Assembly (NCBI GenBank): GCA_018823705.1
Contig: JAHJHP010000031.1
Span: forward strand, 1,982 to 65,981
DNA: 64,000 bases
From: Candidatus Omnitrophota bacterium
GTDB taxonomy: Bacteria; Omnitrophota; Gorgyraeia; 2-01-FULL-45-10
Reading direction: 5' to 3'
Positions 1-59,373 of this stretch are shown here, piece after piece; positions within the stretch are counted from its first letter, which is position 1, and the number at the start of each line of letters is the position of its first letter. Under the pieces are notes generated by a model. That model was not told where the DNA came from. It searched no databases and saw nothing but the letters and a program-made list of their open reading frames with translations. Position numbers and translations under genes: made by a program.

Positions 1-1480
1 CATCATGGTAAATTGTAATCCCGAAACTGTCTCCACTGATTATGATACGTCCAATAAGCTGTATTTTGAGCCGCTCACCGTTGAAGACGTGCTTACCATC
101 TACCGTAAAGAGAAACCGGACGGTGTGATAGTCCAGTTTGGCGGGCAGACCCCTCTCAATATAGCTCAGGAGCTTCAGGATAATGGCGTAAAAATAATCG
201 GCACGAATCCCGAGAGCATAGCCTTTGCCGAAGACCGCGAGCTCTTCCGTAAAAAGATGATATTGCTCGGCATACGTCAGACGGATGGCGCCACAGCGTT
301 CTGTATTGAAGAGGCTCTCGAGATCGCGAAGAAGATAGGATATCCGCTTATGGTCCGCCCGTCATTTGTGCTCGGCGGGCGAGGTATGGACATAATACAT
401 GACGAAGATATGCTATCTACCTACGCCAGAGAAGCTATCAGGGTCAGCCCGGAATATCCGATGCTTCTCGACCGGTTCCTTGAGAATGCCCTTGAATGTG
501 AAGTCGATGCGCTTTCCGATGGGGAAGAGGTATTTGTGACGGCGGTCATGGAGCATATCGAGCAGGCCGGCATCCATTCCGGCGATTCGGCGTGTTCCAT
601 TCCTGCGCGTACGATCAAGCCGGAGCATATTAAGACGATCGAGAAGTATACGGTAGTGATCGCGAAAGAATTGAAGGTAATGGGCCTGATCAATATCCAA
701 TTTGCCATCTGCGATGACGTCGTATATATACTTGAGGCCAACCCCCGCGCTTCAAGGACGGTGCCGTTTGTCTCCAAGATAATAGGCATGCCCATAGCGC
801 GTATCGCCACACAGCTTATGCTTGGTAAGAAGATAAAGGATTTCCCCGAATTACGCCATCAATCACGCGATTATGTCGGCGTAAAAGAGGCGGTCTTTCC
901 GTTCAACATGTTCCCGGAAGTCGATCCGGTGCTGGGCCCCGAGATGAGGGCTACCGGTGAGGTGATGGGGATCGACCGGACATTCGGACTTGCTTTTTAC
1001 AAAGCCCAGGAAGCTGCGGGGAATCCGCTTCCGCGCGAAGGGAGCGTCCTGGTCACTGTAGCCGACGAAAACAAAGCGGAGCTCCTGCCGATAGCCAAAC
1101 GGCTGGTGAAACTGGGGTTCACGCTGCACGCGACCGAGCATACCTGCGAATATCTGAAGAAAAAAGGCGTTTCGTCATCGCTGATCAATAAGATGTATGA
1201 AGAAAGGCCGAATATTGAAGATGCGATAAAGAATAGACAGGTCCACCTGATCATCAATACTCCTTCCGGCAGGTTTGGGAAGCGGGACGATAGCTATATC
1301 AGGATGATGGCGATCCAATACAAGGTGCCTTATTTTACGACGATGGCAGGCGCGGAAGCGAGTGTCGAAGGAATAGAAGAGATGAGTAAAGGCCGGAGCG
1401 AACCGGTTTCATTGCAGGAGTACCATGCCCGGAAGATAGCGGCGGATCAGGGAAAGAAAGCGCTTAGCGCCAAAACATAA
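1..1480 (+). CDS. carB: carbamoyl-phosphate synthase large subunit, C-terminal portion (5' partial; starts upstream of window)
   Basis: ORF 5..1480 translation matches the CarB second ATP-grasp half plus MGS-like domain (VIVQFGGQTPLNIA, IQFAICDDVVYILEANPRASRTVPFVSK). No start codon inside the window. Confidence 0.9.
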   Translation, partial: IMVNCNPETVSTDYDTSNKLYFEPLTVEDVLTIYRKEKPDGVIVQFGGQTPLNIAQELQDNGVKIIGTNPESIAFAEDRELFRKKMILLGIRQTDGATAFCIEEALEIAKKIGYPLMVRPSFVLGGRGMDIIHDEDMLSTYAREAIRVSPEYPMLLDRFLENALECEVDALSDGEEVFVTAVMEHIEQAGIHSGDSACSIPARTIKPEHIKTIEKYTVVIAKELKVMGLINIQFAICDDVVYILEANPRASRTVPFVSKIIGMPIARIATQLMLGKKIKDFPELRHQSRDYVGVKEAVFPFNMFPEVDPVLGPEMRATGEVMGIDRTFGLAFYKAQEAAGNPLPREGSVLVTVADENKAELLPIAKRLVKLGFTLHATEHTCEYLKKKGVSSSLINKMYEERPNIEDAIKNRQVHLIINTPSGRFGKRDDSYIRMMAIQYKVPYFTTMAGAEASVEGIEEMSKGRSEPVSLQEYHARKIAADQGKKALSAKT

Positions 1481-3464: not shown

Positions 3465-4538
3465 ATGCTGATGAAAAGAATAACGATATTGTCCGCGTTT
3501 ATAGTCATAATTTTGTTCACGCGCACGGCTGTAATGGCTCAGGAAACTGCCGGGAGTGACGCGCAGAAATCGGCGAAGACAAAGAACGCGATAAGCTGGC
3601 AGTCGATAGGCCAGAAGATGAAAGAATACAAAGGAATTTTGAAGGAGATCGTCAGTGATGCCGAGAAGAGCCTTAAAAAGATGGAAGAAGAATCTAAGGC
3701 CCGTGAGAGTGAAAAAGCGATGAAGGAAGCCGCCAAAAAGGCGAATGCGGAAGCTATCAAAAAAGCGGCGAAAAAAGCAGCTAAAAAGAAGGCCGCGGAT
3801 GAAGTCGTCGTGAAGGCTAATAAGGCAGCTGAAAAGAAGGCCGCGAAAGAGGCCATCGCGAAGGCAAAGAAGGCCGAGAAAGAAGCCGCCGCGAAGGCAA
3901 AGAAGGCCGAGAAAGAGGCCATCGCGAAGGCAAAGAAAGCCGAGAAAGAGGCCATCGCGAAGGCAAAGAAAGCCGAGAAAGAGGCCGCCGCGCAGGCAAA
4001 GAAAGCCGAGAAAGAGGCCGCCGCGCAGGCAAAGAAGGCTGCCAGGCAGAAGGCCACGGATGAAGCCGCCGCGAAGGCTGCCAGAGAGATTGAAAGGAAA
4101 AGGTCGGAAGAAGCCGCTATAATGGCGAAGAGTGCGTCAAGATTAAAAATCACGGAGCCCACTCAGGAGCCCCGCCTGTTACCTGCTACTAGACGTCCTG
4201 TGAAAAAACCCAGAGCGGTAAGAGAGGTAAAAAAAGAGAGCTCCGCGTCAACCGCTAAAAGTTCAGTAGACGCTAGGAGGCTTACACCTACAGAATTGGT
4301 TATAATTCCGGTGACGCATGTGAGGAAAAGACACTTGATCGATAGGCCTTCACCGGAAGCTCAGATGATCGTTGCCAGTGAAGAAGTCTCCGCTATATAC
4401 AGGGATGCGGTAGCGCTTTACTGGGATAATAAATACAGCGATGCTAAAGCGAAGTTCGAACAAGTCCAAAAGGCATTGCCTGAATATGCGCGCACGAGCT
4501 ACTATCTGAGGCGCGTCAAGGAAAAGCTAAGTAAGTGA
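3465..4538 (+). CDS. membrane-anchored Lys/Ala/Glu-rich tandem-repeat protein (TolA-domain-II-like helical region plus Pro-rich linker plus C-terminal globular domain)
   Basis: N-terminal hydrophobic segment. About six copies of an 11-aa unit (KAKKAEKEAIA/AAA), followed by a PTQEPRLLPATRRPVKKP linker. Confidence 0.5.
   Translation: MLMKRITILSAFIVIILFTRTAVMAQETAGSDAQKSAKTKNAISWQSIGQKMKEYKGILKEIVSDAEKSLKKMEEESKARESEKAMKEAAKKANAEAIKKAAKKAAKKKAADEVVVKANKAAEKKAAKEAIAKAKKAEKEAAAKAKKAEKEAIAKAKKAEKEAIAKAKKAEKEAAAQAKKAEKEAAAQAKKAARQKATDEAAAKAAREIERKRSEEAAIMAKSASRLKITEPTQEPRLLPATRRPVKKPRAVREVKKESSASTAKSSVDARRLTPTELVIIPVTHVRKRHLIDRPSPEAQMIVASEEVSAIYRDAVALYWDNKYSDAKAKFEQVQKALPEYARTSYYLRRVKEKLSK
3850..4060 (+). 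repeat. 33-nt in-frame tandem repeat (about 6 copies) inside the CDS
   Basis: Repeating gcgaaggcaaagaaRgccgagaaagaRgcc... units encoding the KAKKAEKEA(I/A)A repeats. Confidence 0.8.
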
Positions 4539-4554
4539 TTAGTTATTAGGACGT

Positions 4555-4800
4555 ATTAGGGGACGTGTCACTTTGGCCTGCCTGCCTGCGACCTGTTTAC
4601 CAGCAGGCAGGCAGGGACACTCCACTTTTTGTAAATTATCCATAACTACCGGCAAATTAACTATAAGTAGCCCAGGTTACTATTGTTATCAGCAGTAGGG
4701 GAGGTTTACCTGCCCGCCCGCAGCCGTATTCTTGCGAGCAGGCGGGAACCTCCCCTACCATAGGTCTTCCCGCTCGCCTCCCCCAAAGTGACACGTCCCC
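4555..4800. mobile_element. MITE-like non-autonomous element, copy 1 (terminal inverted repeats ATTAGGGGACGTGTCACTTTGG ... CCAAAGTGACACGTCCCC) with internal nested hairpins
   Basis: Left end at 4555-4576 is the reverse complement of the right end at 4783-4800. Same termini as the element at 48349-48463. Contains internal GC-rich hairpins (cctgcctgcctgc...gcaggcaggcagg; ggggaggtttacctgcccgcc...ggcgggaacctcccc). Confidence 0.6.
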
Positions 4801-28486: not shown

Positions 28487-29938
28487 ATGAGCGGTATATT
28501 CGGAGTGGCATCGAAGCACGATTGCGTGAGGGACCTTTTTTACGGGACGGACTATCATTCCCATCTGGGCACCGAATTCGGGGGGATGGCGGTCCTGGGT
28601 AAGAAGTTCACCAGGCAGATACATAATATAAGCCAGACGCAGTTCAAATCGAAGTTTTACGAGGATTCCAGGCTGATGTCCGGCACCAAGGGCATCGGAG
28701 TGATAAGCGCGCATGACGAACAACCTATCTACATAAATTCCAGGTTCGGGCCCTTCTGTATAGTGACCAACGGATTTATAGAGAATGCCGAAAAATTGGC
28801 CGCCGGGCTTATGGATAGAGGGGTGTCTTTCAGCGAGGTCACAAAAGGTTCCGTGAATATCACGGAGCTTATAGCCAAACTCATTGTGGAAGGAAGCTCT
28901 ATAGTAAGCGGGATAGAAAAGATGTTCGAGATGATAGAGGGATCTTGCTCGCTGCTGTTGCTGAATAAGGACGGTATATATGCCGCGCGCGACAGGTACG
29001 GGTATACTTCGATGGTGCTCGGTAAGCGCAAAGACGCCTGGGCTGTCACCTCGGAGACATCGGCATTTCCCAATAACGGTTTTGAGATCGCAAGTGACCT
29101 GGGCCCCGGCGAGATAGTCCTTATAAATGAGGACGGCCCCCAGGTAAAGAAGGTTCAGGGCGTCAGATCCCAAATCTGCACTTTCTTTTGGATATATACG
29201 GGATTTCCGGCGTCCACCTACGAAGGCGTAAATACCGAGATCGTCAGGGAGAGATCCGGCCGTTTTCTGGCAAAGCGCGACAAGGATATAGGCGTGGATC
29301 TTGTGGCAGGCGTTCCGGACTCGGGTGTGGGGCATGCTATAGGATACGCGATGGAATCCGGCAAACCCTACAGGCGTCCGCTGGTAAAGTATACGCCCGG
29401 TTACGGCAGAAGCTATACTCCACCGTCTCAGGAGACCAGGGACCTTATAGCAACGATGAAGCTGATACCCGTGAAAGAGATAATTGATTCACAGCGCATC
29501 GTGCTATGCGAAGATTCAATAGTGCGCGGCACACAGCTCAAGAACTTCGCGATCAAAAAACTATGGAGCGCGGGAGCCAAAGAGATACATGTGAGGCCTG
29601 CCTGTCCGCCGCTTATGTTCCCCTGCCGCTTCAATCTTTCGACGCGCACTATAAATGAACTTGTTGCGCGCAGGGCGATACGCAGCATCGAAGGGCGTGA
29701 TGTCGCGGATGTAGCAGCCTATATTGATCATAAATCTCCGAAATACAGAAAGATGGTGGATTGGATCGCGAAATATATCGGAGTCACAACCCTCAGATAC
29801 CAGACTGTGGATGACATGGTAAAGGCGATAGGCCTCCCCAGGGAGAAGCTTTGTCTATATTGCTGGACAGGTGAATGTTGCGGCAAGTCCTCCTGCCGGA
29901 AGAAGAGCAAAGAGAGCGAAACGGTTTTAAAATCATAA
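28487..29938 (+). CDS. purF: amidophosphoribosyltransferase-like protein (PurF homolog; N-terminal nucleophile position is Ser not Cys; Cys-rich C-terminal tail)
   Basis: Ntn-amidotransferase fold plus PRTase motif VLCEDSIVRGTQ. Begins MSGIFGV where canonical PurF has MCGI. Tail CLYCWTGECCGKSSC. Confidence 0.7.
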   Translation: MSGIFGVASKHDCVRDLFYGTDYHSHLGTEFGGMAVLGKKFTRQIHNISQTQFKSKFYEDSRLMSGTKGIGVISAHDEQPIYINSRFGPFCIVTNGFIENAEKLAAGLMDRGVSFSEVTKGSVNITELIAKLIVEGSSIVSGIEKMFEMIEGSCSLLLLNKDGIYAARDRYGYTSMVLGKRKDAWAVTSETSAFPNNGFEIASDLGPGEIVLINEDGPQVKKVQGVRSQICTFFWIYTGFPASTYEGVNTEIVRERSGRFLAKRDKDIGVDLVAGVPDSGVGHAIGYAMESGKPYRRPLVKYTPGYGRSYTPPSQETRDLIATMKLIPVKEIIDSQRIVLCEDSIVRGTQLKNFAIKKLWSAGAKEIHVRPACPPLMFPCRFNLSTRTINELVARRAIRSIEGRDVADVAAYIDHKSPKYRKMVDWIAKYIGVTTLRYQTVDDMVKAIGLPREKLCLYCWTGECCGKSSCRKKSKESETVLKS

Positions 29939-33058: not shown

Positions 33059-33448
33059 ATGGCTCCAAAGAAGATATTGATAGTTGACGATGATAAAGAA
33101 TATCTGGAAGAGCTGAGCGAGATGCTGACTCTGGCGGGATATGATGTAACGGCTATTAGCGATGGCGCTTCTGCCGTAAAGGCCGCGCAAGTCACAATGC
33201 CGGACATAATATTAATGGACCTTCGTATGCCGATAATGAGCGGATTCGAAGTTGCCGACCGCCTTAAGGTGCTTACCCAGACATGCAAGATACCCGTGAT
33301 AGCCATAACGGGGTATTATACGATGAAGGAGCACGTATGGCTGATGAAATTTTGCGGTATTAAAAGATGTATAAAAAAACCGGTCAATCCGATCGATATA
33401 AAAGCGGAAATAGAGAGCGTTTTAAAAGAGCAGGAAGCTTCAGGATAA
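33059..33448 (+). CDS. response regulator, receiver domain only
   Basis: ILIVDDD...phospho-acceptor D in IILMDLRMP. Confidence 0.85.
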   Translation: MAPKKILIVDDDKEYLEELSEMLTLAGYDVTAISDGASAVKAAQVTMPDIILMDLRMPIMSGFEVADRLKVLTQTCKIPVIAITGYYTMKEHVWLMKFCGIKRCIKKPVNPIDIKAEIESVLKEQEASG

Positions 33449-33472
33449 TGACATTTTGAATCGGGTAATAAA

Positions 33473-33526
33473 GGCCTCGGTCGGAGACCTCGGCACTTAG
33501 CTAACACTGTGGCTTAATAAACTTGG
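33473..33526 (+). repeat. 54-nt leader repeat (family D: GGCCTCGGTCGGAGACCTCGGCACTTAGC-N12-GGCTTAATAAACTTGG), single copy, abutting the RBS
   Basis: Also present as two tandem copies at 36312-36417. Ends in cttggagg, i.e. it supplies or abuts the Shine-Dalgarno sequence. Confidence 0.7.
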
Positions 33527-33538
33527 AGGTGGCTTGAG

Positions 33539-33718
33539 ATGGCAAAAGTTATGAACGTGGGTACAGATTATTTAAAGAAGGCTTCAGGCAAAAATCTCGG
33601 TAATATGGTCCAGAAGAAAGCATATGAGTTGTATGTGAAAAGAGGTAAGCGGCCCGGCCACGAGCTGGACGACTGGCTGGAGGCCGAAAGGCTCATAAGG
33701 CAGAAGGCCAGTTTCTAA
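33539..33718 (+). CDS. DUF2934-like small protein (59 aa; below the ORF-track length cut-off)
   Basis: MAKVMNVGTDYLKK...KKAYELYVKRGKRPGHELDDWLEAERLIRQKASF. Paralog of 18082..18264. RBS ggagg. Confidence 0.55.
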   Translation: MAKVMNVGTDYLKKASGKNLGNMVQKKAYELYVKRGKRPGHELDDWLEAERLIRQKASF

Positions 33719-35981: not shown

Positions 35982-35997
35982 AATAACAGACAATCCT

Positions 35998-36025
35998 TGA
36001 CTTAAGATAAGCGCATGCTATAATA
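35998..36025 (+). promoter_or_regulatory. sigma70-like promoter TTGACT-16-TATAAT driving the TPP riboswitch
   Basis: ccttgacttaagataagcgcatgctataataag, about 15 nt upstream of the riboswitch. Confidence 0.5.
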
Positions 36026-36040
36026 AGACCGTTAAGAAAA

Positions 36041-36190
36041 GGGGAGGTCGTAGGTACGGCCTGAGAGTTCCGCGCGCGCCTTCGGGCGCAGAGCGGATTA
36101 CCCAATGAACCTGATCTGGATAATGCCAGCGGAGGGAGAGGGGGGATGAAGAACGATAACCTTTATGCGACAAGCATAAGGGTTTTTTAT
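36041..36190 (+). promoter_or_regulatory. TPP (THI-box) riboswitch with intrinsic-terminator expression platform
   Basis: cctgagag...acccaatgaacctgatctggataatgccagcggagggag matches the THI-box core (CUGAGA ... ACCC.UGAACCUGAUCUGGAUAAUGCCAGCG.AGGGA). Followed by hairpin cctttatgc-gacaa-gcataaggg then tttttt. Confidence 0.85.
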
Positions 36191-36311
36191 TGAGGCCACA
36201 ACTTATGGGGCCATATTCTGCTGGCAGCGACATAAGTTGTAAGGACGAAATAATCCCGCCTGAATAAGAATTTTTCATATATCTGGCGGGATAATCAGCA
36301 ACCACAACTAA

Positions 36312-36417
36312 GGCCTCGGTCGGAGACCTCGGCACTTAGCCAATATCGTGGCTTAATAAACTTGGCCTCGGTCGGAGACCTCGGCACTTAGCCAATATCG
36401 TGGCTTAATAAACTTGG
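36312..36417 (+). repeat. two tandem copies of 52-nt leader repeat family D, immediately upstream of the thi4 RBS
   Basis: Two near-identical units (ggcctcggtcggagacctcggcacttagccaatatcgtggcttaataaactt), head to tail, with no spacer. Confidence 0.75.
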
Positions 36418-36428
36418 AGGGCGGATAA

Positions 36429-37238
36429 ATGTTTAAAAAGATAACAGAGTCTCAAATAAGCAGGGCCATTGTTGGTGAATTCACTAAGTGGTTTAATGAG
36501 TATATTGTTTCGGATGTTATAGTAGTAGGTGGAGGCCCCAGTGGCCTGATCGCGGCGCGTGATCTGGCGAATAGCGGCCTTAAGACGCTAATAATAGAGA
36601 GTAATAATTATATAGGCGGGGGCTTCTGGATAGGCGGATATTTTATGAATACCCTGACCTTCAGGGCTCCGTCAGACGAGATCCTTGATGAACTGAAGAT
36701 ACCTTATAAAGAGGTAGAAGACGGACTGTTCGTTGCGGATGGCCCTACCGCCTGCTCAAAACTCATTTCTGCGACCTGCGATTCCGGCGCTAAAATCCTG
36801 AACCTAACCAAATTTGACGATGTTGTCCATCGTAACAACAGAGTTGAGGGAGCAGTAATTAACTGGTCGCCGGTTTCTGCTCTACCGAGACAGCTCACCT
36901 GCGTAGATCCTATTGCTCTGGAATCAAAGGTTGTAATCGATGCTACCGGCCATGATGCCTGGGTGGCGAAGAGCCTTGAAAAGAGAGGGTTATTGAAACT
37001 GCAGACATACGGACCTATGGATGTGTGTTCCTCGGAGGATCTTGTAGTCGAAAAAACAGGGGAAGTATACCCCGGCTTATATGTGATGGGCATGGCAGCG
37101 GCTACCGTTCATGGCATACCACGCATGGGCCCAACATTCGGGGGGATGCTCTTCTCAGGCAGGAAAGCAGCTGAGCAGATAATAAAAAAATTGAATCAAA
37201 AAGAACAGTTTTCCGCTAAAGAAACTGTAGCTGTTTAA
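36429..37238 (+). CDS. thi4: thiazole biosynthesis enzyme Thi4 (archaeal/eukaryotic type)
   Basis: VIVVGGGPSGLIAA FAD/NAD fold. GMAAATVHGIPRMGPTFGGMLFSG. 269 aa. Downstream of the TPP riboswitch. Confidence 0.85.
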   Translation: MFKKITESQISRAIVGEFTKWFNEYIVSDVIVVGGGPSGLIAARDLANSGLKTLIIESNNYIGGGFWIGGYFMNTLTFRAPSDEILDELKIPYKEVEDGLFVADGPTACSKLISATCDSGAKILNLTKFDDVVHRNNRVEGAVINWSPVSALPRQLTCVDPIALESKVVIDATGHDAWVAKSLEKRGLLKLQTYGPMDVCSSEDLVVEKTGEVYPGLYVMGMAAATVHGIPRMGPTFGGMLFSGRKAAEQIIKKLNQKEQFSAKETVAV

Positions 37239-37265: not shown

Positions 37266-37441
37266 GTAGCCCGGGCTCCTGCCTACCTGCTTTCCTATTG
37301 GCAAGTAGGCAGGCAGGTAAGCCCGGGCTACAATCGTGTATAACCGTAATAGTTTAGCCGGAAGAACAACTTACGACGTAGGGGACATTTAAATGTCCCC
37401 TACAACCTCGTAGAGATACTTCTTTATGCTAAACTATTACG
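37266..37441. repeat. intergenic palindromic repeat cluster: family B hairpin (GTAGCCCGGGCTCCTGCCTACCTGC...GCAGGTAAGCCCGGGCTAC) plus an adjacent ~100-bp imperfect palindrome
   Basis: Family B unit recurs at 51707-51786. Arms cgtaatagtttagc (37345-58) / gctaaactattacg (37428-41) enclose the palindrome gtaggggacatttaaatgtcccctac. Confidence 0.7.
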
Positions 37442-46341: not shown

Positions 46342-46380
46342 AGTCCGGGCTTAAGCCCGGACTACAATTGTGGATAACTT
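46342..46380. repeat. palindromic repeat family C (AGTCCGGGCTTAAGCCCGGACT plus CAATTGTGGATAACT)
   Basis: The CAATTGTGGATAACT 15-mer also occurs at 51772-51786 and, reverse-complemented, inside the MITE at 48386-48400. Confidence 0.65.
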
Positions 46381-46381
46381 T

Positions 46382-46615
46382 ATGAAGAAGATGTCTTTAA
46401 TAAAACTCAAGGCGAATCGCAAGGGCAGGATCGTTGAGATTTTAGGAGGCTCGAACTTGCAGAGCAGGTTGATGAATATGGGTGTGTTTAAGGGCAAGGA
46501 AATCAGTAAGCTCAGCCATGTTGGGCTGAGAGGCCCCGTAGTAATAAAATCCGGCAGAAGCATTCTAGCTTTAGGTCATGGCGTAGCAGCCAAAGTGATA
46601 TTAGAGACAGAATGA
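46382..46615 (+). CDS. feoA: FeoA family protein
   Basis: SH3-like FeoA (GRIVEILGGSNLQSRLMNMGVFKGKEI). Confidence 0.85.
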   Translation: MKKMSLIKLKANRKGRIVEILGGSNLQSRLMNMGVFKGKEISKLSHVGLRGPVVIKSGRSILALGHGVAAKVILETE

Positions 46616-48348: not shown

Positions 48349-48463
48349 GGGGACGTGTCACTTTGGGACACTCCACTTTATATAAGTTATCCACAATTGT
48401 AGTCCGGGCTACAAGTTCGCTATTAGTTCTCTTAAGTGGAGTGTCCCAAAGTGACACGTCCCC
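48349..48463. mobile_element. MITE-like element, copy 2: 115 bp with perfect 30-bp terminal inverted repeats (GGGGACGTGTCACTTTGGGACACTCCACTT)
   Basis: First 30 nt are the exact reverse complement of the last 30 nt. The core carries the family C motif ttatccacaattgtagtccgggctac. Confidence 0.75.
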
Positions 48464-51706: not shown

Positions 51707-51786
51707 GTAGCCCGGGCTCCTGCCTACCTGCTTTCCTATCGGCAAGTAGGCAGGCAGGTAAGCCTGAGCTGCAATTGTGGATAACT
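51707..51786. repeat. palindromic repeat family B copy 2 fused to family C 15-mer
   Basis: gtagcccgggctcctgcctacctgctttcctatcggcaagtaggcaggcaggtaagcctgagctgcaattgtggataact. Nearly identical to 37266-37330. Confidence 0.7.
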
Positions 51787-51829
51787 GTACGTAAGTGGGT
51801 TTTTAGTAGCTTATAAAGGTTGGCAAAAA

Positions 51830-58125: not shown

Positions 58126-59373
58126 ATGGAGCGGGCTATGATCGTAACGGTAGATTTCGGCAAGAGGGAATCATGGACGGCCGAGGAACGATCGGCCGAG
58201 CTCGCTGAGCTCGCGGAGTCGGCTTTTGCCAAAGTGGTACGCCGGGAGATAGTGCACAGGCATGAACCGTCGAGCGCGTCTTTTATAGGCAGCGGTAAAG
58301 CCGGGGAACTGGCCGCGATAGCCTTAAGCGAGAAGATAGACGTCGTGATATTTAATAACGACCTGACCGCTTCCCAGCAGAAGAATCTCGAGGATATAAT
58401 AAACACGAAGACGATCGACAGGACGCAGCTCATCCTGGACATATTCGCGCGGCGTGCCCATTCTAACGAGGGTAAACTACAGGTAGAGCTTGCGCAGCTC
58501 AAGTATATTCTGCCGCGGCTGATGGACCAGGGGCTCAGTATGTCGAGGCCCGGAGGAGGAATCGGGACGAGTGGCCCCGGAGAACAGAAGCTAGAAACGG
58601 ATCGCCGCACGATAAAAGCGAGAGTCTCCAAGCTTACAAAGGACCTTGCCGCGCTTGGCAGGAGGCGAGATATGATGCGGACCAACCGTTCGCGCCATTC
58701 GCTCCCGACCATAGCGATCGTGGGTTATACCAACGCCGGGAAGTCTACTCTGATTAACGCTCTTACAGGTTCCGATGTCGTAGTCAGGAATAAGCTCTTT
58801 GCCACACTCGATCCCACCGTAAGGAAACTCGTGATGCCCAATAACCAGAAGGTGCTCTTCATCGATACGGTCGGCTTTATAAAAGAGCTTCCGCACCATC
58901 TGGTCGAAGCGTTTAAGGCGACGCTCGAAGAAGTGACCGAGGCGGATTTTCTCCTGCATATTGTCGATGCAAGCCATCCTAAAGCCATGGAACAGGCGGA
59001 AGCGGTATATGAAGTATTGAAGGAGATAGGAGCGATAGATAAGCCTACGATCACCGCTCTCAATAAGACCGATAAAGCCGAAGGTAGAGCTGCGGCGGAG
59101 AGCCTTAAGGGCCGGTTCAGCGACCCGGTGGCGATATCCGCCATTAAGAAGGATGGACTTGACCGTCTTATATCGAGGATCCTCCATTATATAAAAGACT
59201 CTACCGTAGTCATCAATATAAGCATCCCGGCCGGTGATGTAAAGACGCTTAACCTTATCCATGAGAACGGCTTCATCAGGGATCAGAAATACCGGGGCGA
59301 GGAGCTCCTGATCGAGGCAGAAGTCCCCATCCGCCTCAAAGAGATGCTGGGCAGGAGATTTTGCGGAAAATAA
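58126..59373 (+). CDS. hflX: GTPase HflX
   Basis: HflX N-terminal domain plus G-domain (GYTNAGKSTLINALTG, DTVGF, NKTD). Confidence 0.9.
   Translation: MERAMIVTVDFGKRESWTAEERSAELAELAESAFAKVVRREIVHRHEPSSASFIGSGKAGELAAIALSEKIDVVIFNNDLTASQQKNLEDIINTKTIDRTQLILDIFARRAHSNEGKLQVELAQLKYILPRLMDQGLSMSRPGGGIGTSGPGEQKLETDRRTIKARVSKLTKDLAALGRRRDMMRTNRSRHSLPTIAIVGYTNAGKSTLINALTGSDVVVRNKLFATLDPTVRKLVMPNNQKVLFIDTVGFIKELPHHLVEAFKATLEEVTEADFLLHIVDASHPKAMEQAEAVYEVLKEIGAIDKPTITALNKTDKAEGRAAAESLKGRFSDPVAISAIKKDGLDRLISRILHYIKDSTVVINISIPAGDVKTLNLIHENGFIRDQKYRGEELLIEAEVPIRLKEMLGRRFCGK

Follow-up and report, generated by a model that had tools for sequence, protein, structure and literature searches.

The 64,000-nt stretch of a Candidatus Omnitrophota genome analysed here (hereafter, the window) contains three copies of a 52-nt repeat, the D element. 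The observation on which this analysis is based, a preliminary description made from the sequence of the window, was rechecked on the whole stretch and followed into public genomes and metagenomes. The D element is a dispersed, tandemly repeated cassette in the sense orientation whose sense strand folds, whose stop codons are used by upstream genes and whose copy number varies between near-identical strains. We consider the chances about even that it is a lineage-specific translation-initiation leader or insulator carried in mRNAs, in some cases within a 5' leader but more often as a spacer between cistrons.

An exact search of the window with a 29-mer of the element (GGCCTCGGTCGGAGACCTCGGCACTTAGC) and with an 18-mer (GTGGCTTAATAAACTTGG) gave three matches each, all on the + strand, compared with 0.00 and 0.06 matches expected by chance in dinucleotide-preserving shuffles. 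When up to three mismatches were allowed, the 29-mer matched at 33473, 36312 and 36364. A repeat finder grouped the copies as one family with a period of 52 nt. The three copies are therefore where the preliminary description had placed them, with practically none expected by chance, and they precede two unrelated genes as it had claimed: a single unit stands before a gene for a DUF2934 protein, and a tandem pair stands before thi4. The two thi4 units are identical in sequence to each other. The window copies differ solely at five sites in the stem and loop of the second hairpin (TAACACTG versus CAATATCG), which agrees with the short variable stretch reported earlier; in the wider family, the stem and loop of the first hairpin vary too. 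No fourth copy was found in the window by a covariance model run with filters off, and its next-best match (E=0.07) lay inside an open reading frame (ORF). Two other candidates for an extra window copy were rejected: an nhmmer call at 29051-29095, which the covariance model did not confirm, and a weak match at 58500-58550, which lies within an ORF.

Every array in the window runs straight into GGAGG, a Shine-Dalgarno (SD) sequence, so the reported fusion of the repeat to the ribosome-binding site (RBS) holds. The reported CTTGG-plus-AGG context was also found, but the reported spacing of 9-11 nt does not hold strictly: the distance to the ATG is 8-9 nt from AGG and 11-12 nt from CTTGG. The thi4 array sits within a riboswitch-controlled 5' untranslated region (UTR), between the terminator and the SD, in accord with the claim that these copies lie downstream of the terminator of a thiamine pyrophosphate (TPP) riboswitch. 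Coordinates are given in Table 1.

Each unit has the architecture G-P1-ACUU-P2-tail, where P1 and P2 are hairpins. P1 consists of nine G+C-rich pairs (GCC NN NNNC / GNNN NN GGC) in which the sequence is free and the pairing is kept, and compensatory double changes were found at all nine pairs. Among 112 distinct units, 88.5% of P1 cells were paired, compared with 83.0% in shuffles (0 of 500 shuffles reached the observed value), and registers slid by 1-3 columns gave only 25-42% paired cells. About two-thirds of the units have a UC/UC internal loop at P1 pairs 4-5, and the others are fully paired (GA/UC, UA/UA). P2 has five pairs and varies almost solely through G·U, with about 70 G·U or U·G cells versus about 4 A·C or C·A cells; this excess indicates that the sense strand folds, as RNA or as single-stranded DNA, rather than a duplex palindrome or cruciform. 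RNAalifold predicted the same two helices. Covariation analysis, which had been proposed in the preliminary description, thus supported two sense-strand hairpins. A mutual-information scan recovered the P1 pairs alone, with no contacts beyond the hairpins, and a pseudoknot or other tertiary covariation was rejected on this basis. Loop 1 is not conserved (GGA, AGA, UGA, UAAA, GGU, GCCA). The linker ACUUAG and the A/U-rich tail UKAAURAACUU are nearly invariant, which the search pattern partly imposed. Units distal to the SD and units next to it are conserved equally.

The size of the family was examined by three kinds of search. One genome per GTDB species was searched for exact matches to 23 nt of the 5' half, with the 3' half left unconstrained, and this gave six loci in five metagenome-assembled genomes (MAGs), all from Candidatus Omnitrophota. 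All six loci carry the same tail; five run into the SD and ATG of genes unrelated to one another, and in the sixth the final TTG is also part of the -35 box of a promoter. A degenerate-pattern scan over JGI metagenomes gave at least 120 stretches. Iterated nhmmer over 127 sequences (854 kb) gathered by the pattern scans gave at least 208 units in 140 arrays. After removal of redundancy, 130 arrays remained, 80 of them with one unit, 42 with two, 5 with three, 2 with four and 1 with five, at a period of 52 nt. On large contigs the lower bound of the density was one array per 50-100 kb, with 13 or more arrays on a contig of 830 kb and 6 or more on one of 328 kb. The search for further copies that had been suggested therefore uncovered a large family, and every match in a named genome belongs to Candidatus Omnitrophota. 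Because no D element occurs in the 46 kb covered around thi4 from four other lineages of Omnitrophota, the family is confined to part of the phylum, and its sequence can serve as a marker for one branch of Omnitrophota. The D pattern had no match in IMG/VR, which ruled against a phage origin. A search of Rfam 15 gave no match to D units at the gathering threshold or at E<=10, and in that region it returned the TPP aptamer only. Our search of the literature found nothing relevant on the D sequence or on repeats or RNA motifs of Omnitrophota.

The downstream context was analysed for 122 arrays with readable downstream sequence. In 98 of these, the array ends in ...AAUAAACUU/GGAGG (an SD of the ...AAACTT/G(G)AGG type; the slash marks the junction), mostly with the start codon 9-12 nt past the junction G. 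These arrays lie directly 5' of the SD and start codon and are co-oriented with the gene, which bears out the earlier suggestion of a UTR module. In 11 arrays, the end reads ...CTT/GACA or /GCAA, followed by TAnnnT 16-17 nt later, and the element's final TTG doubles as the first half of the -35 box of a good sigma-70 promoter; the CIRCE-controlled hrcA promoter and the ftsH and fabG promoters are among these. One array adjoins a tRNA-Gly(TCC), confirmed by ARAGORN, with its +1 at the junction G, one adjoins the 5'-half fragment of a tRNA, and 11 have a miscellaneous context. The fragment was considered as a second tRNA case and was rejected by ARAGORN and Rfam. It lies at about 150-224 (- strand) of locus L017, where the D unit adjoins the acceptor arm, the D arm and the start of the anticodon arm, and it may be a leftover of an integration event. 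In locus L037, a D unit within 1-130 is fused to a TTGACA-16-TAAACT promoter that is followed by a CIRCE operator (TTAGCACTC-N9-GAGTGCTAA) and hrcA, and a second unit at 1418-1470, between grpE and dnaK, has a tail that ends in CGA instead of CTT and matches its own left flank.

The orientation of the arrays is fixed relative to the downstream unit. The preliminary description had named copies mostly within genes, or in random orientation, as evidence that would speak against a UTR function; among the 130 arrays, on about 127 public contigs, at most one overlapped an ORF on the opposite strand. The 3' end of the array is flush with the SD, whereas the distance to an upstream promoter varies: where the intergenic space allows, canonical sigma-70 promoters are found 0-130 nt before the array, at no fixed distance. 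The gene upstream points the same way as the array in 99 cases and is divergent in 10, and 45 of the 99 co-directional arrays begin within 12 nt of the upstream stop codon. Most of the arrays lie within conserved operons, and the element was found at the conserved junctions fusA/tuf, rpsF/ssb, grpE/dnaK, kdpB/kdpC and xseA/xseB as well as hisD/hisB, serC/serA, pyrR/pyrB, ilvN/ilvC and parA/parB; the genes downstream have no common function. GC skew was positive in the orientation of the element at 61 of 65 loci. Replication-strand bias was considered as a cause of the fixed orientation and set aside, since it is inseparable from gene-strand bias and since, in the two clear exceptions to the skew, the element follows the gene.

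Stop codons within the element place it in mRNA. Of 119 testable arrays, 37 are entered by a long upstream ORF, and about 35 of these ORFs stop within the first unit or at its edge. Fifteen stop at the invariant UAG of ACUUAG, which gives the protein an 8-aa tail (ASVGDLGT), and seven stop at a TA/G that overlaps the first G of the unit; the remainder stop at UAA or UGA codons from loop-1 variants or at the UAA of the tail. Because about 30% of arrays supply the stop codon of the upstream gene, the element is part of the mRNA. Stops are present in at least two frames in 97% of units and in all three frames in 40%. In addition, about 90% of units contain RUG-GCU-UAA(-UAA) or RUG-GCU-GAA-UAA in model columns 37-48 (the P2 3' arm and the tail), that is, a start-like triplet with one or two codons and in-frame tandem stops. 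This motif occurs in the window at 33509-33520, 36348-36359 and 36400-36411, and no SD precedes it. It may be simply a by-product of the stem; another possibility is a minimal ORF that comes into use once translation has ended at the upstream UAG.

Comparison of orthologous loci with and without the element gave information on its insertion. The thi4 orthologues of other Omnitrophota (79-87% identity; L140-L143) have a promoter, TPP riboswitch, terminator, short spacer, SD and ATG, and no unit. The element-free leader in L143 retains GGAGGGCGG, the string that follows the array in the window; the SD therefore predates the insertion and was not carried by the element. This comparison indicates that the array was inserted at the 5' edge of an existing SD. 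Left flanks of arrays (AAA/G, TAA/G, ATA/G) resemble the ordinary A-rich context before SDs, and 79 element-free GGAGG genes likewise have an A-rich 5' context, not CTT. Among the collected loci there were 34 filled/empty orthologue pairs. Several of the empty junctions are overlapping ATGA or GTGA pairs, and their filled counterparts have the element and a free-standing SD. In the closest pair, L118 and L100 (FabG 97% identical), L118 has three units that are missing in L100. Two of them are placed precisely at CACTT^GACA within a -35 box (^, insertion point), where the CTT of the element regenerates TTG, and the third is at TACTT^GAGGG. Both insertions are thus at ACTT^G, yet a CTT left flank was found in only about 10 of 118 arrays. 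No junction nucleotide is common to flank and tail in 92 of 115 arrays. In about 10% of arrays, the array's own tail variant recurs as flanking direct repeats; since a tail-like left flank is limited to these arrays, a target-site duplication was rejected, and remnants of truncated sister units are the simplest account.

The number of units changes rapidly, while the arrays themselves can persist. The window and locus L087 are 99.7-99.8% identical over 8 kb, and their sole indel is one extra 52-nt unit at the DUF2934 site. Contigs encoding proteins identical to those of the window have one or two units at both window sites. Four short-read contigs (L131-L133, L139) begin or end within the D element just upstream of the DUF2934 gene or thi4. 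Because contigs break within tandem units, the copy numbers in MAGs (1 versus 2) need caution, and part of the polymorphism could be assembly collapse. At orthologous junctions (rplU, ftsH, a pilin-like gene and others), arrays are retained between genomes with about 80-90% protein identity. In the four usable pairs, a small sample that is partly subject to ascertainment by the search pattern, loop 2 had changed about as much as synonymous sites (33% versus 36%), P1 had changed by 14% with four compensatory double changes, and the linker and tail had hardly changed.

Among the three functions proposed in the preliminary description, a leader acting on translation at the RNA level fits these data best. 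In such a role, the cassette would stop ribosomes arriving from the upstream cistron (at UAG, UAAUAA or UGA), and its two local hairpins would confine the neighbouring sequence and would cap the 5' end after an endonucleolytic cut in the A-rich flank. The A/U-rich tail would present the SD unpaired, so that the downstream cistron could initiate independently of its upstream context, and in several comparisons with empty junctions the element would replace the overlapping ATGA or GTGA coupling. The predicted unpaired probability of the SD-to-start region was 0.53 in element-bearing genes and 0.45 in control genes (Mann-Whitney p=6e-6).

Several points weigh against a leader or insulator. The difference in predicted accessibility is modest, and its control set came from crude ORF calls. 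The fold of a single unit is no more stable than that of shuffled sequence (z -0.5 to +1). Where an upstream ORF terminates at the UAG, P1 is within the translated sequence and therefore cannot fold stably there. Since the pattern that retrieved most copies held GGCACTTA and the tail fixed, the conservation of both segments is partly an ascertainment effect; at the same time, the strict conservation of ACUUAG and the tail exceeds the needs of an unstructured A/U tract and suggests a specific partner. The 11 arrays that lie upstream of promoters and share TTG with the -35 box are outside the mRNA of that gene, and one array adjoins a tRNA, where translation is irrelevant. These fusions to a -35 box or a tRNA are unexplained by a pure translation leader and fit better with an insertion-site preference or a boundary function. 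An effect of the cassette on translation or mRNA stability is a prediction from the sequence.

The main rival is a selfish, non-autonomous insertion sequence that prefers the 5' edge of signals starting with G (A-rich/GGAGG, CTT/GACA, tRNA +1) and brings no benefit to the host. We regard it as possible but clearly less probable than a leader or insulator, and rank it before the other alternatives because the -35-box and tRNA fusions point to just such a preference; target choice, not translation, explains them. The hairpins and ACTT motifs would then serve mobilisation as single-stranded DNA, in which G·T pairs are equally acceptable, and the stops and the SD-friendly tail would merely make the insertion non-polar. 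Presence or absence in close relatives with precise junctions (L118 versus L100, at ACTT^G, one in a -35 box) and variable copy number among near-identical strains are as expected of such an element, as are a left flank with the ordinary A-rich pre-SD context, an SD older than the element at thi4, and the tail-variant direct repeats at about 10% of arrays. Its right end lies 10 nt 3' of the foot of P2, which we take to match the geometry of IS608. On the other hand, the element has neither terminal inverted repeats nor a consistent target-site duplication, a conserved left-flank target is missing from about 80% of arrays, and no transposase was identified in the approximately 0.9 Mb of flanks covered. 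Arrays also persist at orthologous junctions (about 80-90% protein identity) with changes confined to the loop or compensatory in P1, distal and SD-proximal units are conserved alike, and at two loci the element follows the gene against the local GC skew. The selfish reading and the leader or insulator reading are compatible: the element probably originated as a semi-selfish insertion element and may still behave so, and because its design makes insertion into tight operons non-polar, it would be tolerated, or useful. Binding by a trans-acting global regulator, an RNA-binding protein or small RNA (sRNA) that reads ACUUAG and UAAUAAACUU at tens of genes per genome, appears unlikely, although a protein or sRNA binding site remains among the candidate functions. 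Its logic would be akin to that of CsrA/RsmA or of plastid PPR/HCF107-type factors, and it would account for single-stranded segments that are invariant while the stems covary, for the likeness of the two conserved segments (CACUUAG, AACUUGG), for the direct contact with the SD and for heterogeneous downstream genes, as expected of a global layer of control. Against it, no partner was identified, 854 kb held no antisense copy able to encode an sRNA, and the conservation of linker and tail is partly imposed by the search pattern. A CsrA/RsmA site in particular was attractive from the window copies, with their GGA loop and the GGA of the SD, and was dropped because the P1 loop is not conserved and the GGA loop that CsrA requires is present in only about 47-59% of units.

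The remaining explanations concern the 5' end of the downstream RNA. The element might be an RNA processing signal or a small self-cleaving RNA that makes a 5' end at CUU/G and leaves its hairpins on the 3' end of the upstream fragment, which we consider improbable. Its 3' boundary is fixed relative to the SD and coincides with the +1 of tRNA-Gly, it is intercistronic where cistrons are needed in unequal amounts (fusA-tuf, grpE-dnaK), A/U-rich single-stranded tracts lie beside the hairpins on both sides, the two AC/UU sites of a unit presumably resemble the preferences of RNase E-type enzymes, and an array that precedes a promoter could influence the 3' end of the transcript from upstream. But no known self-cleaving class has a structure as simple as two short hairpins, mutual information gave no covariation outside them, and there is one bona fide tRNA case only, the second being a fragment. 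The small self-cleaving ribozymes (hammerhead, twister, pistol, hatchet, HDV-like) gave no Rfam match, even at E<=10. The least probable alternative, in our judgement far-fetched, is a compact mobile promoter cassette with transcription starting at the junction G, in which mRNAs would begin with the SD, tRNAs would be leaderless, and tandem units would be tandem promoters. Downstream units (SD, tRNA +1) do start exactly at the 3' end of the element, and the genes behind them include highly expressed ones (tuf, rplU, rpmI, gap, ssb, dnaK). If the junction G is taken as +1, manual reading finds TG at -15/-14 and CTTAAT or CATAAT at -12 to -7, preceded across a 17-nt spacer by TCGGCA or TCGACA at -35. 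This reading has T at -11 in place of the essential A, and a consensus scan that detects TTGACT-16-TATAAT upstream of the riboswitch finds no sigma-70 hexamers inside the units. The genomes use canonical TTGACA-17-TATAAT promoters that lie upstream of the arrays at variable distance, and a promoter in the element would bypass the conserved TPP riboswitch and terminator at thi4 and would sit within tightly regulated operons such as kdpFABC. Furthermore, upstream ORFs terminate inside the element, and RNA-type covariation of the sense strand is kept even in single units. The mobile promoter cassette that had been one of the earlier suggestions is thus disfavoured by the lack of sigma-70-like hexamers and by a position that is downstream of a terminator, intercistronic and partly translated. 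A sigma-54 promoter (TGGCAC-N5-TTGC) was also rejected, since GGCAC is present but the next GC is 8 nt away, not 12, and there is no TTGC. Extended pairing of CUUGGAGG with the 3' tail of 16S rRNA was rejected because element-free genes are A-rich, not CUU, before GGAGG. Finally, the element might be an autonomous RNA punctuation mark, a mobile module of processing and re-initiation unique to Omnitrophota, cut at CUU/G by itself or by a dedicated nuclease and homing as DNA or RNA to the 5' edges of start signals, so that mRNAs would begin at the SD and tRNAs at +1; this bolder proposal seems to us quite unlikely, slightly less so than processing alone.

Among known repeats, the D element resembles BOX elements of Streptococcus pneumoniae (boxA-boxB(n)-boxC) in being a small, dispersed, intergenic and tandemly variable module that folds as RNA, is co-transcribed and differs in copy number between strains; the two have no common sequence or structure. 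BOX elements are longer and have three modules, the terminal ones of which pair together; they are not fused to an SD and supply no stop codons. REP/BIME sequences of Enterobacteria and Pseudomonas are likewise small, structured, co-transcribed dispersed repeats inside operons. They are imperfect palindromes of about 35 nt at hundreds of sites, stabilise mRNA, are associated with RAYT transposases and presumably move as hairpins of single-stranded DNA; they have a GTAG-type 5' tetranucleotide, typically occur in inverted pairs, lie 3' of genes and protect the upstream cistron. The D element, in contrast, is anchored to the downstream start signal and forms direct head-to-tail arrays only: the GTAG of REP was not found in the A-rich flank before P1, and all multi-unit arrays are direct with the 52-nt period. 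Miniature elements derived from IS200/IS605 (PATEs) and IS608 are similar in having two subterminal hairpins on one strand, no inverted repeats, a specific orientation and, in one recent case in the D family, an ACTT^G target. Sense-strand hairpins without inverted repeats were indeed found here, as judged by covariation and the excess of G·T over A·C. The left end of D, though, adjoins the foot of a hairpin, whereas that of IS608 is about 19 nt away, and a length of 52 nt is far below the size described for PATEs, with about 80% of D arrays lacking a conserved left-flank target; a TnpA gene was likewise not found in the flanks covered. Correia elements (CREE) and miniature inverted-repeat transposable elements (MITEs) are abundant, small, co-transcribed insertions that alter the expression of adjacent genes, but their terminal inverted repeats, target-site duplication (TA for Correia) and insertion in either orientation have no counterpart in the D element, whose 5' end GGCCTCGG and 3' end AATAAACTT are not complementary.

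The nearest functional parallels lie elsewhere. The plastid intercistronic expression element (IEE) and other intercistronic processing or stabiliser sites (Bacillus subtilis cggR-gapA, dnaK operon) are also about 50 nt long and lie just upstream of the next SD, where they render the following cistron stable and translatable on its own, a likeness of function that we infer; these are single-locus sites bound by known factors, whereas the D element is a dispersed tandem family. The A/U-rich UUAAUAAACUU immediately 5' of the SD recalls the epsilon sequence of the T7 gene 10 leader (UUAACUUUA) and S1-binding tracts, and a local hairpin before such a tract recalls synthetic RBS insulators (RiboJ, bicistronic designs), although no ribozyme is evident in the D element. 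Compared with these enhancers and insulators, the D element is natural, occurs at tens of sites per genome, contains stop codons and is conserved more strictly than S1 binding requires.

Table 1. Positions of the D units and of the adjoining genes and control signals in the window.
Feature	Position	Strand	Evidence or description
Response-regulator ORF, co-directional, upstream of DUF2934 unit	33059..33448	+	
Single 52-nt D unit before DUF2934 gene	33473..33524	+	Covariance model 80.7 bits, E=3.5e-22
P1 hairpin of DUF2934 unit	33474-33494	+	9 bp, UC/UC internal loop, GGA loop
Linker ACUU of DUF2934 unit	33495-33498	+	
P2 hairpin of DUF2934 unit	33499-33514	+	
A/U-rich tail UAAUAAACUU of DUF2934 unit	33515-33524	+	
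SD GGAGG adjoining DUF2934 unit, 9-nt spacer, ATG	33525..33541 (SD 33525-33529)	+	
DUF2934 ORF, 59 aa	33539-33718	+	Pfam PF11154
thi4 upstream control region (promoter, TPP riboswitch, terminator)	35997..36191	+	
Sigma-70 promoter of thi4	35997-36024	+	TTGACT-16-TATAAT
TPP riboswitch aptamer	36040-36137	+	48.1 bits; Rfam gathering score 54.3
Intrinsic terminator	36158-36184	+	Canonical, with U run
Distal D unit of thi4 tandem array, in thi4 5' UTR	36312..36363	+	Covariance model 78.9 bits
SD-proximal D unit of thi4 array	36364..36415	+	Covariance model 67.6 bits
SD GGAGGG, spacer and thi4 ATG	36416..36431	+	
thi4 ORF	36429-37238	+	PF01946

The stop codon of the response-regulator ORF is 24 nt before the DUF2934 unit, and a weak promoter-like site at 33421-33449 overlaps the end of this ORF. 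The TPP riboswitch scores under the gathering score because of a long insertion in one stem, and automatic annotation at the gathering threshold therefore misses the aptamer. Between the riboswitch terminator and the D array, at 36195-36310, there are two further hairpins (ACAACTTATG...CATAAGTTGT and ATCCCGCC...GGCGGGAT). They are kept in near-identical strains and absent from the thi4 leaders of L140-L143, so the thi4 leader was expanded by more than D units alone.

Other repeats were observed in the window and beside D arrays elsewhere. A second family, at 37266-37348 and 51707-51789 with a partial copy at 46352-46382, forms a near-perfect hairpin of considerable length (GTAGCCCGGGCTCCTGCCTACCTGC...GCAGGCAGGTAAGCCCGGGCTAC), after which comes CAATYGTGKATAAC with a DnaA-box-like TGTGGATAA inside it; the family's first copy begins 28 nt past the thi4 stop codon. 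The sequence TGTGGATAACTTTG of this family was found just upstream of D arrays before pilin-like genes in L014, L062 and L096. A two-copy repeat (GGGACACTCCACTTT..TTATCCAYAA; family D8) at 4614-4645 and 48365-48396 ends in a DnaA-box-like TTATCCACA. At 3780-4063 there is a tandem repeat of about seven copies with a 33-nt period (AAAGAAGGCCGAGAAAGAGGCC...; families D1/D2), which looks like a coding repeat rich in Lys, Ala and Glu. The hairpin repeats AGTAGCGCACCCTTAAGGGTGCGCTACT and AACCTACGCGGTTAACAT cluster beside D arrays on short contigs (L033, L049 and L061; L029, L060 and L071). Genomes bearing the D element appear to be rich in several families of intergenic hairpin repeats.

The strict fusion to start signals and the built-in stop codons set the D element apart among small, structured, dispersed intergenic repeats. 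If the leader or insulator reading holds, it would be, to our knowledge, the first dispersed repeat specialised for the site where a stop codon meets the next RBS, bringing its own stop codons, insulating hairpins and pre-SD tract. Such a compact natural RBS insulator would be a possible part for synthetic biology. For metagenomics, the tandem units break or collapse short-read assemblies, and gene callers will lengthen upstream proteins by the element-encoded ASVGDLGT. We know of no cultured representatives of Omnitrophota and no genetics for the phylum, and the D element gives a view onto the organisation of gene expression in these bacteria.

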